Below, one piece after another: positions 21,863 to 28,323 of a stretch of DNA of 28,323 bases. The notes under the pieces are model-generated. The model worked only from the letters and a program-made list of their open reading frames with translations, searched no databases and was not told where the DNA came from. The translations under genes were made by a program, and so were the position numbers. Location of the stretch: positions 1-28,323 of the forward strand of contig JBIOIC010000001.1 in assembly GCA_044449625.1 (NCBI GenBank), given 5' to 3'. Origin of the DNA: Gemmatimonadales bacterium. Lineage in GTDB: Bacteria > Gemmatimonadota > Gemmatimonadetes > Gemmatimonadales > GWC2-71-9. The first letter of the stretch is position 1; each line of letters opens with the position of its first letter.

Positions 21863-21918
21863 TACCTCACCCCCTGACCCCCTCTCCCTGAAGTGAGAGG
21901 GGGTCAGGGGGTGAGGTA
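21863..21918. repeat. Perfect 24-bp inverted repeat with 8-nt loop (REP-like palindrome)
   Basis: TACCTCACCCCCTGACCCCCTCTC-cctgaagt-GAGAGGGGGTCAGGGGGTGAGGTA; arms checked base by base. Confidence 0.9.
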
Positions 21919-21971
21919 TAGTCGCGTGAGCCGGAGCATCGGGCGTCATCAATCCCGTGCGCCCAGGCACG

Positions 21972-22001
21972 AAAAACCCCTCTCCTTTGAAGGAAGAGGG
22001 G
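21972..22001 (-). terminator. Intrinsic terminator after the mutase gene
   Basis: Minus strand CCCCTCT-T-CCT-tcaa-AGGAGAGGGG (one bulge) followed by TTTTT, about 70 nt after the mutase TAA. Confidence 0.7.
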
Positions 22002-22035
22002 CCGGGATGAACGCGCGGGAGCCGGACTGCACCCC

Positions 22036-22063
22036 CCGCTCACCGTTCACCGTTTACCGCTCA
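22036..22063 (-). repeat. Heptamer tandem array, 4 units
   Basis: Minus strand TGAGCGG TAAACGG TGAACGG TGAGCGG, starting 6 nt after the mutase stop. Confidence 0.8.
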
Positions 22064-22069
22064 CTGCCT

Positions 22070-23614
22070 TTACCCCCGATACGTCCCCCACGCCTTCCGG
22101 AGCACATCGCTGATCTCCCCCAGGGTGGCGCGGGCCCGAACCGCCTCGATGATCGGCGGCATCAACGGCTCGGTCCCCGCCGCGGCGAGGGCCAGCACGC
22201 CGAGCCGCGCCGCCACCACGCCGCCGTCCCGCCCGGCCTTGGCCGCCTGGAGCGCGGCGATCTGCCGCGCCGCCAGCGCCGAAAAATCGGGGCCCGGGAG
22301 GACCGGCACCGTGGGGTTGTCGGTGAACCGGTTGACCCCGACCACGACCTGCTCCCCCGCCTCCTGCTGCTGCTGCTGGATCCAGGCGCTCTCGGCGATC
22401 GCCTTCTGGAAGAACCCCTTCTCGATCGCGGCCGCCGCCCCACCCAACTCATCCACCTCCGCGATGAGCGCCCGGGCCTCCCGCTCGACCCGATCAGTGA
22501 GCGCTTCGACATAGTAGCTCCCGCCGAGTGGGTCCACCGCGGAGGTGATCCCGCTCTCATAGGCCAGGATCTGCTGAGTCCGGAGGGCGAGTGTAGCCGC
22601 CTCGGCGCTCGGCAGCGTCAGGGCCTCGTCGTACCCGTTGGTGTGCAGCGACTGCGTCCCGCCGAGCACCGCCGCCAGCGCCTGGACCGTCACCCGGGCC
22701 ACGTTGTTGAAGGGCTGCTGCGCTTGCAGGGTGACGCCGCCGGTCTGGGTGTGGAAGCGCAGTCGCGCGGTCGCGTCATCGGCCTGGAAACGTTCGCGGA
22801 CGAGCGCGGCCCAGAGCCGCCGCGCCGCACGGAACTTCGCCACCTCTTCGAACAGGTCGTTGTGCGCCGCGAAGAAGAAGGAGAGCCGCGGGCCGAAGCC
22901 GGCGAGCGGCACCCCGGCCGCGATCCCGTGGCGCACGTACTCCAGCCCGTTGGCGAGGGTGAACGCAACCTCTTCGGCCGCGGTGGCCCCCGCCTCGCGG
23001 ATATGGTATCCGCTGATCGAGATGGGATTGAAGTTCATCCCCTCCTCGACCACGAAGCGGAAGATGTCAGTGGTGAGCCGGAGCGAGGGTTCGGGGGGAT
23101 AGATGTAGGTCCCCCGGGCGATGTACTCCTTGAGCACGTCGTTCTGCACCGTCCCGCCCAGCTGCCGGCGGGTGACCCCCTGCTCCTCCCCCACGACGAC
23201 ATACATCGCGAGCAGGATCGCGGCGGTCGCGTTGATCGTCATCGAAGTGGTGACGCCGCCGAGAGGAATGCCGCGGAAGAGCTCGGTGAGGTCATTCACC
23301 GTGTCGATGGCGACGCCGACGCGCCCGACCTCCCCTGTCGCCATCGGGTGGTCAGAGTCGTACCCCATCTGGGTCGGGAGGTCGAAGGCGGTGGAGAGGC
23401 CCGACTGCCCCGCGGCGAGGAGCTGACGGAACCTGGTGTTGGTCTCCTCGGCGGTTCCGAAGCCGGCGTACTGCCGCATCGTCCAGAGCCGGGTGGTGTA
23501 CATCCCCGGATGGATGCCGCGGGTGAAGGGGAACTGACCCGGAGAGACTGGCGGCTCCGGCACGTCAGCGGGGCCGTAGACGATTTTGCCCTCGGGATCT
23601 GGCGGTAGCGTCAC
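22070..23614 (-). CDS. Methylmalonyl-CoA mutase family, large (substrate-binding) subunit without a B12-binding domain
   Basis: FPFTRG...[95 protein letters not shown]. No C-terminal DxHxxG domain. Confidence 0.96.
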
Positions 23615-24624
23615 GACGCCGGCTCCGTCATCACTTCGCGGACCCAGGCGACGTCATCCCGGCAGCCGATGACCAGTGGTGTGCGCTGATGCAGCTCCGT
23701 CGGCTGGATCTCGAGGATCGGGAAGGCTCCGTCGGTGGCCGCACCCCCCGCCTGCTCGGCGAGGAACGCCATCGGCGAGGCCTCGTAGAGAAGCCGGAGC
23801 TTGCCCCGCGGGTTCTTGGTGTCGGCGGGATACATGAAGATCCCGCCGGCAATCAGGTTCCGATGAAAATCGGCGACGAGCGAGCCGATATAGCGGCTGT
23901 TCTTCCCGGCGAGCCGCTCCGGGAAATCCCCGTGAAAACCGCGGACCGCCTTCTGGGTCTGCCGATCCCAGCGCGCAAAGTTGCTCTCATTGACACTGTA
24001 GTAGGTGCCGTTCTTCGGCATCCGGATCTGGTCACGGGAGAGAAGGAACTCCCCGATGGTGGGGTCGAGGGTAAAGCCGTGCACTCCGATCCCGGTCGAA
24101 TAGATCAGCATCGTGCTCGAACCGTAGATGACATACCCCGCGGCCACGAGCTTCCGTCCCGGCTGCAGCAGGTCCTCGAGCGCCCCGCCACCCGACGTGG
24201 TCAACCGGCGGTAGATGCTGAAGATGGTGCCGACCGCGGCATTCACATCAATGTTCGACGAGCCGTCCAGCGGATCGAAGAGCACCACGTACTTGCCGGA
24301 TTTGTACTCGGGGGGGATGGGGATCGGGCCATCATCCTCCTCCGAAGCCATCACGCAGACCCGCCCGGTGTGGTTGAGGGCGTGCTTCAGGGTCTCGTTG
24401 GCGAAGACGTCGAGCTTCTGCTGCGACTCTCCTTGGACGTTGGTGACCCCCGAACTGCCCAAGATGTCGACCAGGCCCGCGCGACGAATGTTGGCGGAGA
24501 TGATCTTGGCGGCGAGGCCGATATCGTAGAGCAGGTTGGACAGCTCCCCGGTGGCCTCGGGGAACCGGTTCTCCTGGTCGAGGATGAAACGCTCGATCGT
24601 GGTGACGGAGGTGCGGCTCTGCAC
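23611..24624 (-). CDS. fbp: Fructose-1,6-bisphosphatase class 1
   Basis: [80 protein letters not shown]. Confidence 0.98.
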
Positions 24625-24637
24625 GCGGGCCCCGGGG

Positions 24638-24665
24638 TAAACGGTGAAGGGTCAAGGGTGAACGG
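24638..24665 (+). repeat. Heptamer tandem array, 4 units, straddling the comEC stop
   Basis: TAAACGG TGAAGGG TCAAGGG TGAACGG. Shares the exact units TAAACGG and TGAACGG with the 22036-22063 array, in the opposite orientation. Confidence 0.8.
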
Positions 24666-26919
24666 ATGTCGCCGCTGTCAAAGCGTACTGTTCGCTGCGT
24701 CCGGAACCGTGCACGCGCATCGTCGCGCTGTCGACGAGGACCTCGATCGTTCCGGATTCGTCGGTCCGCCAGACCGAGGCCCCGGCCGTCCGCAAACGCC
24801 CGAGCGTCTCCGCGGCGGGATGACCGTAGCGGTTTCCCCGCCCCACGCTGACGACGGCTACTTCAGGCTTGAGCTCCGCGAGCCACTCGACTCCCGACGC
24901 GGTACGGCTCCCGTGGTGTCCCACCTTGAGGAGATCGATGTCGCCAACGCGGCCCCGGAGTCTCCCCTCGGCACGCAGTCCCGCGTCGCCCGCGAGCAGC
25001 GCGTGGAACGCGCCCCAATGGATCAGCAGGACGACGGAATCCTCGTTGAGGTCGAGCCCCCACTCCGCCCACGTCGTATCGGGATGCAGCACCACGAGCT
25101 CGACGCCATCGACCCGGAGCGTATCGCCGGAGCGCAGCGGCGCCCATTGCGTCCCGTCGGCCGCCGCGGCATCCAGCATTCCGAGGTAGGCCGAATCGGG
25201 AACCGCCTCGCCCGGTTCCAGCAGGAGCGCGGCGTTGACCCGGTCCAGCACCGCGGGGATTCCGCCGAAATGATCGAGGTGCGCATGGGAGAGCACCACG
25301 GCGTCAAGCCGATCGATTCCTTCCCGGGCCAGGAATGGAGCCACCACCCGCCGCCCCGCGTCGCGTCCCTCCAGGCGAGGACCCGCATCGATCAGAATCG
25401 CGTGGCCGTGAGGGGTCCGGAGGAGTGCTGCATCCCCCTGGCCGACATCGAGAAAATCTAACCGCAGCCCCGAGACCGGGCCACGCGCCGACAGAGCCGC
25501 AGTCCAAAGAAGCCCGACCCACGCCGCGGCGGCGCCCGCCAGCACGATGCGGGTCCCCGCCACGCCCCGGGTATTGCGCGAGCCAGCCGCCCACAGTGCG
25601 ATACCAAGCACCAGGAGCCACGGCAGCGCACTCATCGGCTCCGCCGCGAGAGTCATGTGTCCGAAGGGGAGGATCGCTCCGAGCGCGGCCAGCCGGTCGA
25701 GCCCGACGAGCCCGATCCCCGCCCCGGCCGCGAATGCCCGCGCCAGGGGCATTGCCACCGGCGCAATCACCACGCTGGCGAGCGCGCCGGGGACGGCGAT
25801 CGCGGCGAGCGGAATCCCGATGAAGTTGAGAACGATCCCGGCGAGTGCGACCGTGCCGAGCGCCGCGGCGGTGATCGGCGCCGTGGCGAGGGTCGCGCCG
25901 ATGGAGCCCGCCAGGGTCTGCCATCCGGCATGGCGGCCGAGCGCGCGATCGCTCCAGCGGGTGAAATGGGTGGCGCCACCGAGCGATCCCACCGAGAGCC
26001 AGGCGCCGATGTCGAAGATGGCCCAGGGATCGACCACCAGGACCGCGAGCGCCGTGACGGCCAGCAGGCTGCCCGGGGCGACCTGACGCTGTCGCAGCCG
26101 CGCCGTACAGGTCACCACCGCGAGCGCAACCGCCCGGGTGGCGGGAGCGGGCCAGCCCAGCCATCCCACATAGCCCACCGCCACCGCCGTAGCGACCAGC
26201 CAGGCGCGTTCGCGGGAGAGTCCGGCGGCGCGGCAGAGGATCAGAATCCACGCCACGATCAGCCCGACGTGAAAGCCCGAGATCGAGAGCAGATGGATGA
26301 GGCCGGCCTGGGCGTAGGTGTCGCGCAGCACCGGATCGAGCGCGCCCCGCCGGTCGAAGAGCAGCGCATCGACCAACGGGGCGCGGCTGCCGTAGAGCTG
26401 GCGGGTAACGCCGAAGAGTCGAGCGCGCGCGGCGAGTCCGCGCGGGACATCTCCGAGTGCCGGCGCCACGCGCGCGGCGACGAGCACGCCCCCCGGACGT
26501 CCCGCCGGCCCCTCGGGCCGCGGGATCCAGCGCCCCTCAACGGCGACCCGTGTGCCAACCTCGGCCCGTGCCCGGGGCGACCAGCGGACCGCGATATCTC
26601 CATCACAGCGGCCCGCCGGAGCGAAGCGGACCGGCGTAGCGCCGACCGGCGGGTCCCGCGGCACACCGACGACACGGACCTCACCACCTTTGAGCAGGGC
26701 CGAGCACCGTGCCGGCTCCACCCGCCACGCGACCCAGGCGACACCGCGCCCGACGAGCGCCGCGCCGAGGATGAGGACCAAGGTCGGACGCCGGCCGACA
26801 GCGAGGACCAAGACGGCAAGACCCAGAAGCGCGCTTCCCGTATCCCCGAAACGCAAGAGGCCGGTCGCAAGACCGGCCCCATATCCCACCACCAGCGCCA
26901 CGGCGGGCGCCGGCCTCAT
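24652..26919 (-). CDS. comEC: DNA internalization competence protein ComEC/Rec2 (N-terminal OB-like loop + Competence domain + metallo-beta-lactamase domain)
   Basis: AGLIHLLSISGFHV (Competence), DPWAIFDIGAWLS, FLDVGQGDA, LIDAG, LSHAHLDHFGG (HxHxDH), NEDSVVL, LKVGHHGS, NRYGHP, WRTDESG. ATG 26919 preferred over GTG 26961, which overlaps comFB. Confidence 0.96.
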   Translation of the reverse strand: MRPAPAVALVVGYGAGLATGLLRFGDTGSALLGLAVLVLAVGRRPTLVLILGAALVGRGVAWVAWRVEPARCSALLKGGEVRVVGVPRDPPVGATPVRFAPAGRCDGDIAVRWSPRARAEVGTRVAVEGRWIPRPEGPAGRPGGVLVAARVAPALGDVPRGLAARARLFGVTRQLYGSRAPLVDALLFDRRGALDPVLRDTYAQAGLIHLLSISGFHVGLIVAWILILCRAAGLSRERAWLVATAVAVGYVGWLGWPAPATRAVALAVVTCTARLRQRQVAPGSLLAVTALAVLVVDPWAIFDIGAWLSVGSLGGATHFTRWSDRALGRHAGWQTLAGSIGATLATAPITAAALGTVALAGIVLNFIGIPLAAIAVPGALASVVIAPVAMPLARAFAAGAGIGLVGLDRLAALGAILPFGHMTLAAEPMSALPWLLVLGIALWAAGSRNTRGVAGTRIVLAGAAAAWVGLLWTAALSARGPVSGLRLDFLDVGQGDAALLRTPHGHAILIDAGPRLEGRDAGRRVVAPFLAREGIDRLDAVVLSHAHLDHFGGIPAVLDRVNAALLLEPGEAVPDSAYLGMLDAAAADGTQWAPLRSGDTLRVDGVELVVLHPDTTWAEWGLDLNEDSVVLLIHWGAFHALLAGDAGLRAEGRLRGRVGDIDLLKVGHHGSRTASGVEWLAELKPEVAVVSVGRGNRYGHPAAETLGRLRTAGASVWRTDESGTIEVLVDSATMRVHGSGRSEQYALTAATSVHP

Positions 26920-26935
26920 CCCGCCCGACCCCGGG

Positions 26936-27217
26936 TCAGCGCCCGCCGGAGGGTGCAGCACCGCAGCGAGGGGCCATCCCCACCTTCCGGAACGCCTCGA
27001 GGAGGACCACTTCGGTCGCCACGCGAGTCTGGTCCCGGTCGAGCGCGATCTCGCTCAGGACCGCTCCCTCCGTGGTCGCGACGTAGCGGGCGGGGAGCCG
27101 GTTCAAGGCATAGACCAGGACGTCGCTCCGGCAGATCTTGCAGCCACAAAATCCGGCGATCGACGACAGCAGCGCGTCGTAACGCTGGGTGACATGTTCT
27201 TCCACGAGGTTCCGCAT
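26936..27217 (-). CDS. ComFB family (late competence development ComFB) protein
   Basis: MRNLVEEHV...FCGCKICRSDVLVYALNRLPARYVAT...VGMAPRC fits the ComFB pattern N..EE.V...C.C..C..D....ALN.LP..YV....PR[H]. 93 aa; TGATG overlap with miaB. Family recognised from memory, not by HMM. Confidence 0.88.
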   Translation of the reverse strand: MRNLVEEHVTQRYDALLSSIAGFCGCKICRSDVLVYALNRLPARYVATTEGAVLSEIALDRDQTRVATEVVLLEAFRKVGMAPRCGAAPSGGR

Positions 27218-28323
27218 CACACGACCGCCAGGGCGCGCCCGGCCGGAGCCGGTTCGCCGGTGAAAGTGGAGCCGGTCGTGCCGGTGAGACGCACCGTGTG
27301 GTACTCACCGATGGCCGACGCAGGCAGCTCGAGCAGAACCATGTGGTTGGCGCGGGTGCGCCCGAGCAGGAGCCCGCCCCGCTTGGCCGGCCGCTCCACC
27401 AGCACTTCGTGGACCTCGCCGACGCGGGCGAAGTTCTTCCGGGCCGCCTGACCACGGGCGACACCGATGAGCCGATCGAGCCGCTCACTCGCCACCGCAT
27501 CCTCGATGTGCCCCTTGATTCGCACCGCCGGCGTCCCTTCCCGGACCGAATACTTGAAGGTGTAGGCCTCGTCGAAGGCCGCTTCCTCCACCAGCGACAA
27601 GGTCTCCGCGAATTCCGCTTCGGTTTCACCGGGGAATCCAACGATGAGATCGGTCGAAATGGTGATGCCGGGAATGGCGCGCCGAAGCCGGACGACGACC
27701 TCGATATAGGTGGCGCGATCGTAGCGCCGGAGCATCCGCTTGAGGCAGCTGTCTGCGCCGCTCTGGGCCGGCAGGTGGACGTGCTCGCAGACCGCCTCCA
27801 CCTCCGCCATCGCCGCGATGACGCCGTCGGTGAAATCGGTGGGATAGGGGCTGGTGAAGCGGACGCGGCGGACCCCGTCCACCGCGCCCACGGCGCGCAG
27901 GAGGTCAGCGAAGTCGTGCCGGCCATCGTGATAGCTGTTGACCGTCTGCCCAAGGAGCGTCACCTCCGTGGTGCCCCCGGCGGCGAGCTCCGCCACCTCC
28001 CGCACCACGTCGGACAAGTTACGGCTCCGCTCCGGTCCGCGCGTGTACGGAACAATGCAGAAGGTGCACTTATAATCGCAGCCGCGCTGGACGGTGACGA
28101 ACGCGGTCGGACCGCCCTGCCGTACCGGCGGCACATCCTCGTAATGCTCCCAGGAACGGAACGCCGTATCGCTCACCCGGCCTCCCGCCTCGGCCTGGGC
28201 GATGACATCGGGAAGATTCCGATAGGCGTCGGGTCCCACCACCAGGTCGATCTTGGAGACCTGCTCCAGCAGCCTGGGCCCCAGCCGCTGCGCCATGCAT
28301 CCCACCACGCCGAGCACCCCGCC
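27217..28323 (-). CDS. miaB: tRNA (N6-isopentenyl adenosine37-C2)-methylthiotransferase MiaB, 5'-truncated by the window
   Basis: GVVGCMAQRLG (UPF0004 end), radical SAM GCDYKCTFCIVPYTRGPERSR, LLGQTVNSY, RFTSPYP, HLPAQSG, TDLIVGFPGETE, FKYSVREGTPA, C-terminal TRAM domain (GRTRANHMV). Confidence 0.97.
   Translation of the reverse strand, partial: GGVLGVVGCMAQRLGPRLLEQVSKIDLVVGPDAYRNLPDVIAQAEAGGRVSDTAFRSWEHYEDVPPVRQGGPTAFVTVQRGCDYKCTFCIVPYTRGPERSRNLSDVVREVAELAAGGTTEVTLLGQTVNSYHDGRHDFADLLRAVGAVDGVRRVRFTSPYPTDFTDGVIAAMAEVEAVCEHVHLPAQSGADSCLKRMLRRYDRATYIEVVVRLRRAIPGITISTDLIVGFPGETEAEFAETLSLVEEAAFDEAYTFKYSVREGTPAVRIKGHIEDAVASERLDRLIGVARGQAARKNFARVGEVHEVLVERPAKRGGLLLGRTRANHMVLLELPASAIGEYHTVRLTGTTGSTFTGEPAPAGRALAVV

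Follow-up and report, generated by a model that had tools for sequence, protein, structure and literature searches.

Gene organization at the miaB–comFB–comEC locus

We analyzed a 28,323-nucleotide (nt) stretch of contig JBIOIC010000001.1 from the Gemmatimonadales bacterium assembly GCA_044449625.1 (hereafter the window, meaning this whole stretch), focusing on a small gene of the ComFB family, comFB, which lies between miaB and comEC. Coordinates are given in window positions, and all of the genes discussed are on the minus strand (Table 1). The first-pass annotation, made from the sequence alone, had described a 93-amino-acid (aa) open reading frame (ORF) joined to miaB by a TGATG and ending 16 nt before the ATG of comEC on the same strand, and these coordinates proved to be exact. 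The stop codon of miaB (TGA, 27219-27217) has one base in common with the start of comFB (ATG, 27217-27215), for which there is also an alternative GTG start at 27220, and comFB itself ends in a TGA at 26938-26936. The longest frame for comEC opens at a GTG (26961) and would overlap comFB by 26 nt.

Since comFB overlaps the stop of miaB and ends 16 nt ahead of comEC, we infer that the three genes are co-transcribed, and comFB is almost certainly on the same transcript as comEC. A search for sigma-70-like promoters returned no match in 23400-28323, including the interval between miaB and fbp. Terminator-like hits (three in the same region) were all within coding sequence and at the level expected by chance.

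The neighboring genes were readily assigned. MiaB scored 351 bits against TIGR01574 and 357 bits against TIGR00089. ComEC passed the equivalog threshold of TIGR00361 (ComEC/Rec2; 243.3 bits, cut-off 190.05), with Pfam domains Competence at residues 200-457 (E=1.4e-42) and Lactamase_B at residues 505-707 (E=1.5e-16), and a HAHLDH metal motif was seen in its translation. For the N-terminal oligonucleotide/oligosaccharide-binding fold (DUF4131), there was no Pfam match in ComEC residues 1-199 at E<=0.01. Beyond fbp lies a string of housekeeping genes (methylmalonyl-CoA mutase, argS, a PfkB kinase, an AIR-synthase-like gene and riboflavin genes). Three long frames of 500-590 aa on the plus strand (21893-23608, 23689-25461 and 25657-27192) run antisense to this region; these were considered a by-product of the high G+C content and not genes.

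Table 1. Features of the comFB region, in window coordinates.
Feature	Position	Strand	Basis
miaB (tRNA methylthiotransferase), 3' part, continuing past the window end	27217..28323	-	Pfam Radical_SAM and TRAM
TGATG junction of miaB stop and comFB ATG	27215..27219	-	read from sequence
comFB, 93 aa, stand-alone; putative zinc-stabilized cyclic-dinucleotide receptor	26936..27217	-	Pfam PF10719
Spacer of 16 nt from comFB stop to comEC ATG, G-rich: CCCGGGGTCGGGCGGG	26920..26935	-	read from sequence
comEC, 755 aa from ATG 26919; DNA-uptake channel with C-terminal metallo-beta-lactamase domain	24652..26919	-	
fbp (fructose-1,6-bisphosphatase), 27 nt past comEC	23611..24624	-	Pfam FBPase and FBPase_C

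The 93-aa product is a ComFB family protein

The comFB product matched Pfam PF10719 at 60.7 bits (cut-off 25; E=1.5e-16), covering positions 1-80 of the 83 in the profile. Against NF052654, the NCBIfam equivalog for Bacillus-type ComFB, it reached 30.1 bits with a cut-off of 120. By these profile scores the protein is a member of the ComFB family, not a Bacillus orthologue. From 25 clade sequences, AlphaFold2 gave a four-helix model (predicted local distance difference test score 85), and Foldseek aligned it to B. subtilis ComFB (4WAI) with a template modelling (TM) score of 0.76-0.80 and a probability of 1.00, and to Synechocystis CdgR in complex with cyclic di-GMP (c-di-GMP; 8HJA) with a TMq of 0.75. 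No other structure scored comparably in the Foldseek search of this model. The initial call of a stand-alone ComFB-family protein was therefore borne out by both the Pfam score and the predicted fold.

We then compared individual residues, using a phmmer alignment to 4WAI (in which the query position equals the native B. subtilis position minus one), residue roles as given for the B. subtilis protein in a survey of the family (PMC12448109), and conservation from the 25-sequence clade alignment. The dimer residues N4, E7, D33, N40 and Y46 of B. subtilis correspond to N3, E6, D32, N39 and Y45, all of which are present and either invariant or at least 90% conserved among the clade members. The polar ligand contacts (D33, N40 and R/K41, here D32, N39 and R40) are also present and invariant or nearly so, and the hydrophobic contacts at 36, 37 and 47 are V35, Y36 and V46 in the query. 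As for the zinc (Zn) site, the ligands C25, C27 and C30 correspond to C24, C26 and C29, and the fourth ligand is most likely C85, which falls within a C-terminal PRC motif that alternates with PRH both among the relatives and across most of the family at large.

One relative departs from this pattern. In the ComFB at L049:1495-1782 (genome G066), the three N-terminal Cys and the C-terminal Cys/His are jointly gone (FRETPGHRED ... PRTE), and the gene is still located between miaB and comEC with the ALNRLPPRYV core kept; it appears to be a Zn-free variant. That all four positions were lost together in this protein supports treating the four Cys/His as a single Zn site.

Distribution of the arrangement

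The source assembly (2.2 Mb, 79% complete) contains one ComFB gene, and a ComFB match was found in 32 of 40 relatives (33/41 with the window's own genome). We also searched an even sample of the phylum, comprising 301 genomes (300 plus the source assembly, G000), all but two of which are at least 90% complete and which include the unpublished G174, used for this tally and nothing else. ComFB was present in 139/301 genomes, all from three families of one order, Gemmatimonadales (f1, 112/125; f2, 24/71; f3, 2/3), and was found in 0/101 genomes from nine other families of the phylum.

Gene order was assessed at 57 loci by tblastn with the MiaB, ComFB and ComEC proteins of the window. Two of the loci end at a contig edge. 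In the 55 informative loci, which span the three families, the order miaB-comFB-comEC on a single strand was found every time (55/55), and it recurred in three further metagenomic relatives of high GC content that ranked in the upper part of a ComFB profile search, one of which bears a Gemmatimonadaceae name. The start of comFB overlaps the stop of miaB by 4 or 1 bases (ATGA, GTGA or TGATG) in most of the 57 loci. The spacers between comFB and comEC in f1 are about 9-25 nt, as implied by the tblastn coordinates, and those in the further metagenomic relatives are 27-121 nt, based on called genes. The genes have stayed adjacent across deep divergence: compared with the window protein, ComFB identity drops as low as 37% by tblastn and 34% by alignment. 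The arrangement is not peculiar to this genome by chance.

ComFB relatives beyond Gemmatimonadales were collected by a profile search of 1.8 billion representatives, which yielded 1920 relatives at E<=0.001, and neighborhoods were sampled across phyla in four metagenomic contexts and ten Clostridia genomes, the latter loci being located with the ComFB of Mahella (P0252) as the query. The four contexts are those of the nearest low-GC relatives. In the first, the gene lies between gcvP2 and a GATase gene; in the second, it is preceded by a SpoU methylase gene and a second ComFB gene, with aroC next; in the third, it overlaps the end of a RecN-like gene; and in the fourth, it is beside gidB. The ten Clostridia genomes, which carry a close ComFB, have a single ComEC gene located elsewhere. 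Near-coincidences of ComEC and ComFB in Mahella sp. (G319) and Thermoanaerobacterium (G321) were examined and rejected, as the genes were on different contigs or absent from the locus. The adjacency spans three families of Gemmatimonadales and was found only inside this order (ComFB in 0/101 genomes of other families; comEC beside comFB in 0/4 metagenomic contexts and 0/10 Clostridia genomes). The first-pass annotation had named absence of the adjacency outside close relatives as an outcome that would refute its reading, and this is largely what we saw.

Some of these relatives showed features of their own. On the metagenomic contig with the RecN-like (SMC_N) gene (L074:2-1944), the ComFB gene opens at the last base of that gene, a DNA-metabolism neighbor. 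Six of the top profile matches (P0088, P0089, P0092, P0094, P0098 and P0099) are proteins of 180-210 aa with two tandem ComFB stretches, and L079:3715-4285 contains two neighboring ComFB genes. As the family dimerizes, such fused or paired proteins may represent covalent dimers or heterodimers.

The miaB–comEC pair without comFB

For 61 sampled genomes of the phylum, we compared where the MiaB and ComEC matches lie. The two genes are immediate same-strand neighbors in families f4, f6 and f7 and in most of f10, and 3-4 kb apart in f11 and f12. Loci with miaB followed by comEC on the same strand include G062:C90, G082:C1, G087:C1, G041:C3, G047:C183, G049:C103, G052:C8, G054:C204, G057:C60 and G059:C231. 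Because the pairing extends beyond Gemmatimonadales, the miaB–comEC pair is older than comFB. We know of no functional reason for the pairing.

The gap between miaB and comEC in the other orders was inspected for a divergent, hidden ComFB, and none was found there. There is no gene between the two in f10. In f4, f6 and f7, the slot is occupied by an ORF of 81-135 aa with two predicted transmembrane helices (L097:192-437, plus strand; L096:962-1369, minus strand; L098:710-1054, minus strand). Two of these three ORFs have sub-threshold similarity to LapA_dom (E=7e-5 and 0.02), and the ATG of the ORF in L097 overlaps the miaB stop.

Competence and cyclic-dinucleotide genes

A gene inventory was made for the source assembly and four relatives, two of which are closed genomes. 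DprA, a secretin and several PilB/PilT-like ATPases were found in each (5/5 genomes). Each genome encodes 9 to 12 or more GGDEF domains and one diadenylate cyclase (DAC), so that cyclases for both c-di-GMP and cyclic di-AMP (c-di-AMP) are available. One CRP-type regulator was identified in the source assembly (G000:C15:14055-14258).

All four relatives have a ComEA-type HHH_3 gene directly adjoining a pilB-pilT pair (for instance, G003:C40:65669-68744, G146:C1:1595730-1598845 and G160:C1:705397-708492), a group that looks like a dedicated competence-pilus cluster. The source assembly has only a weak ComEA match, and the contig carrying its pilB-like match (G000:C34:830-2877) begins about 830 bases upstream of that match; comEA was probably cut off at the contig edge. 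A ComF-like gene was found in the four relatives at 63-75 bits relative to an equivalog cut-off of 233, and as a 31-bit fragment match in the source assembly. The gene set that the first-pass annotation had proposed to look for (type IV pilus, comEA, dprA and comFC, the last as ComF-like genes) is thus found in the genome or its close relatives, and it is plausible from these gene contents that the genomes combine both second messengers with a complete-looking uptake apparatus. Our literature search, judged by titles and the openings of abstracts, returned no report of a transformation experiment in Gemmatimonadetes.

Two split genes were seen in genomes that lack ComFB. In G031, comEC is split over two reading frames (G031:C12:148134-149896), and in G160 the same is true of the pilB-like ATPase gene beside comEA (G160:C1:706283-707432). 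With two instances, these could reflect either decay along with the loss of ComFB or assembly errors.

A proposed single insertion and a probable cyclic-dinucleotide receptor

We tentatively favor a joint reading, in which the protein is a standard ComFB Zn protein and probable cyclic-dinucleotide receptor that arrived by a single insertion, is co-expressed with ComEC and has a pilus or competence output through a cytoplasmic partner. Specifically, comFB would have been inserted once, at the base of Gemmatimonadales, into the older miaB–comEC pair, and would be expressed from the miaB/comEC transcript. The ComFB dimer would bind a cyclic dinucleotide made by the cell's own GGDEF or DAC cyclases, and the ligand would alter its grip on a cytoplasmic partner protein. 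By analogy with cyanobacteria, this partner could be a CRP-family transcription factor, such as the one that this genome encodes. What would be controlled in this way are type IV pilus and DNA-uptake functions, and the position in the operon would secure joint production of ComFB and ComEC, with no contact between ComFB and the channel being required.

As ComFB is found in one order only and the miaB–comEC pair exists without it, the linkage looks like a single old insertion at a stable junction. What had been proposed as an independent linkage to a competence gene is, on this evidence, one event within one order.

The biochemical part of this reading draws on characterized proteins. ComFB/CdgR proteins are receptors of c-di-GMP, c-di-AMP or both (PMC12448109; PMC10068817), and all of the ComFB proteins tested in the family survey bound c-di-GMP (PMC12448109). 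The ComFB of Synechocystis binds c-di-AMP with a dissociation constant of about 2.6 uM, and deletion of its gene lowers transformation and deregulates pilus components (bioRxiv 10.1101/2023.11.27.568819). CdgR/ComFB also binds SyCRP1 and SyCRP2, and c-di-GMP disrupts these complexes (bioRxiv 10.64898/2026.03.27.713163).

Several observations weigh against this reading. ComFB is dispensable in these bacteria, as f2 has it in just a third of its genomes (24/71, as given above). In five Gemmatimonadales genomes without ComFB (G025, G031, G090, G068 and G160), the order miaB-comEC-fbp is retained with a miaB–comEC gap too small for a comFB gene, and comEC was kept in every ComFB-less relative examined. 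Neither comEC nor miaB is beside comFB in the four metagenomic contexts (0/4) or in the ten Clostridia genomes (0/10). Within the order, miaB and fbp, which are functionally unrelated, are as tightly linked to comEC as comFB is, and for this reason gene order is weak evidence of shared function. Nor can comFB be separated from miaB: at most loci its first codon overlaps the stop of miaB, and miaB and comEC are adjacent without it. It cannot be said that comFB follows comEC and not miaB, and translational coupling, if anything, is to miaB. In B. subtilis and Shewanella, ComFB acts in flagellar motility and not in competence (PMC12448109). The guanine-stacking Tyr (Y55 in B. subtilis; Y115 in the 8HJA chain) is L54 in the window protein and Leu, Val or Ile across the clade; the protein may therefore bind its ligand with another affinity or specificity, or no longer bind it. 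Finally, the sequencing runs found to contain this DNA were of soil metagenome DNA, and no RNA runs containing it were found in that search.

Alternative explanations

The strongest alternative, which we consider possible but somewhat unlikely, is that the position of comFB is a historical accident, and that ComFB is a cyclic-dinucleotide receptor for motility, surface behavior or cell size whose gene came to rest in a permissive, constitutively transcribed junction. The surroundings are those of housekeeping genes (miaB, fbp, methylmalonyl-CoA mutase, argS and riboflavin-synthesis genes), and the slot between miaB and comEC is variable, being empty in f10 and in ComFB-less Gemmatimonadales and filled by the LapA-like ORF in f4, f6 and f7. 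Elsewhere, ComFB relatives are found beside gcvP2, SpoU/aroC, recN and gidB. Outputs of this kind are also known for the family, which controls motility in both B. subtilis and Shewanella and, in Anabaena, cell size (PMC12448109; PMC10068817). However, an accident does not readily explain why comFB has been kept packed against comEC down to 34-37% identity, or why the family is tied to type IV pili or competence in several lineages elsewhere (a Thermoanaerobacterales pilus operon, cyanobacterial hfq and the Bacillus comF operon).

A more direct alternative is that ComFB binds to ComEC on its cytoplasmic side, or to the point of hand-off to ComFC/DprA, and gates translocation or strand degradation by the level of cyclic dinucleotide. 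The order-wide adjacency does weakly suggest control of the channel by ComFB: comFB directly precedes comEC in the same orientation, a short spacer apart, at all 55 informative loci in three families, conserved co-transcribed neighbors often specify interacting proteins, and the cyclases and other uptake genes are encoded. But the adjacency appears to go back to a single event in one order, both the miaB–comEC adjacency and comEC itself persist without comFB, and the characterized ComFB proteins work through transcription factors or motility and not through ComEC. The metallo-beta-lactamase nuclease domain of ComEC is, moreover, described as extracellular (PMC8579336), which would put it beyond the reach of a cytoplasmic protein. 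Because ComFB is cytoplasmic and the nuclease domain is not, only the cytoplasmic face of the channel could be reached, and direct action of ComFB on the ComEC nuclease, which had been offered as one of two targets, is unlikely. We therefore judge gating of ComEC to be an unlikely explanation, and the stricter form of the idea, in which ComFB is a cyclic-dinucleotide-dependent accessory subunit that opens and closes uptake from the cytoplasmic side of ComEC or from the ComFC/DprA exit, to be improbable.

It is also quite improbable, in our estimation, that the ComFB fold and Zn site were kept and cyclic-dinucleotide binding was lost, leaving a small structural or adaptor protein. The clade-wide replacement of the stacking Tyr by Leu, Val or Ile would fit such a loss, and the family survey allows for altered affinity or lost binding where contacts are poorly conserved (PMC12448109). 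Against this, there is little or no variation at D32, N39, R40 and the hydrophobic positions, and binding of c-di-GMP was seen for every ComFB tested in the same survey. Last, a partnership of ComFB with MiaB, for example one linking tRNA ms2i6A modification to second-messenger state, is very unlikely: the -4 or -1 overlap between the comFB start and the miaB stop, seen at most of the 57 loci, and the positive, more variable spacer before comEC speak for it, but no ComFB relative was found beside miaB outside Gemmatimonadales, MiaB is universal in the phylum whether or not ComFB is there, and tRNA modification is among no known functions of ComFB.

Significance

Our favored reading, of a receptor co-expressed with ComEC, bears on how ComFB connects to DNA uptake outside cyanobacteria. 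The gene of the founding member, B. subtilis ComFB, lies in a competence operon, but transformation does not require the protein. The locus described here would be a third separate neighborhood link between ComFB and the uptake machinery, besides the Bacillus comF operon and the clostridial pilus operons. Neighborhoods reported in the family survey comprise comFA/comFC, flagellar genes, pilus operons, hfq and a GGDEF gene, and the survey mentions Gemmatimonadetes homologues of ComFB (PMC12448109). Its main text does not mention comEC or miaB as neighbors of comFB. The pairing is thus new in part, as the comEC neighborhood is absent from that main text, whereas a coupling of second messengers to DNA uptake through ComFB has already been published for cyanobacteria.

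An order-wide comFB-comEC operon in an abundant, little-studied soil phylum, for which cultured Gemmatimonas relatives exist, provides a testable system. If ComFB regulates uptake, horizontal gene transfer in these soil bacteria would be under second-messenger control. If it instead docks on ComEC, this would be the first case of a second-messenger switch whose direct target is the ComEC channel and not pili or transcription. As the basis is gene order arising from one evolutionary event, at a junction with equally conserved housekeeping genes, we regard this as a lead and not a demonstration.

Comparison with characterized ComFB proteins

The ComFB proteins of Thermoanaerobacterales and other Clostridia are among the nearest relatives by profile score, and like the window protein they are stand-alone proteins of about 90 aa, with an NPRH end. 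Their gene sits in a type IV pilus operon (PMC12448109; a same-strand gene run in L089). They differ in that the neighbors are pilus genes and comEC is elsewhere in 10/10 genomes checked.

B. subtilis ComFB (4WAI) belongs to the same Pfam family and size class (98 aa, compared with 93 here), has the four-helix fold predicted for the window protein, and has in common with it the Cys triad and the dimer-interface residues. It is likewise encoded within a DNA-uptake operon, in that case comFA-comFB-comFC. However, the two are only about 25% identical, the partner gene is comEC here and comFA/comFC there, and Tyr55 is replaced by Leu. B. subtilis does not need its ComFB for transformation, and the protein acts in swimming (PMC12448109; bioRxiv 10.1101/2025.07.11.664319).

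Synechocystis ComFB/CdgR (Slr1970; 8HJA) has the ComFB domain, the YALNRLPP.Y core motif and a similar fold, although its sequence similarity to the query is marginal (phmmer E=0.2). It differs in length (about 180 aa, with an N-terminal extension) and in its neighbor, which is hfq and not comEC. It is the one case with an experimental tie to both natural competence and c-di-AMP/c-di-GMP, a function that we propose for the window protein as well, and it acts through CRP-type factors on pilus biogenesis and the expression of minor pilins.

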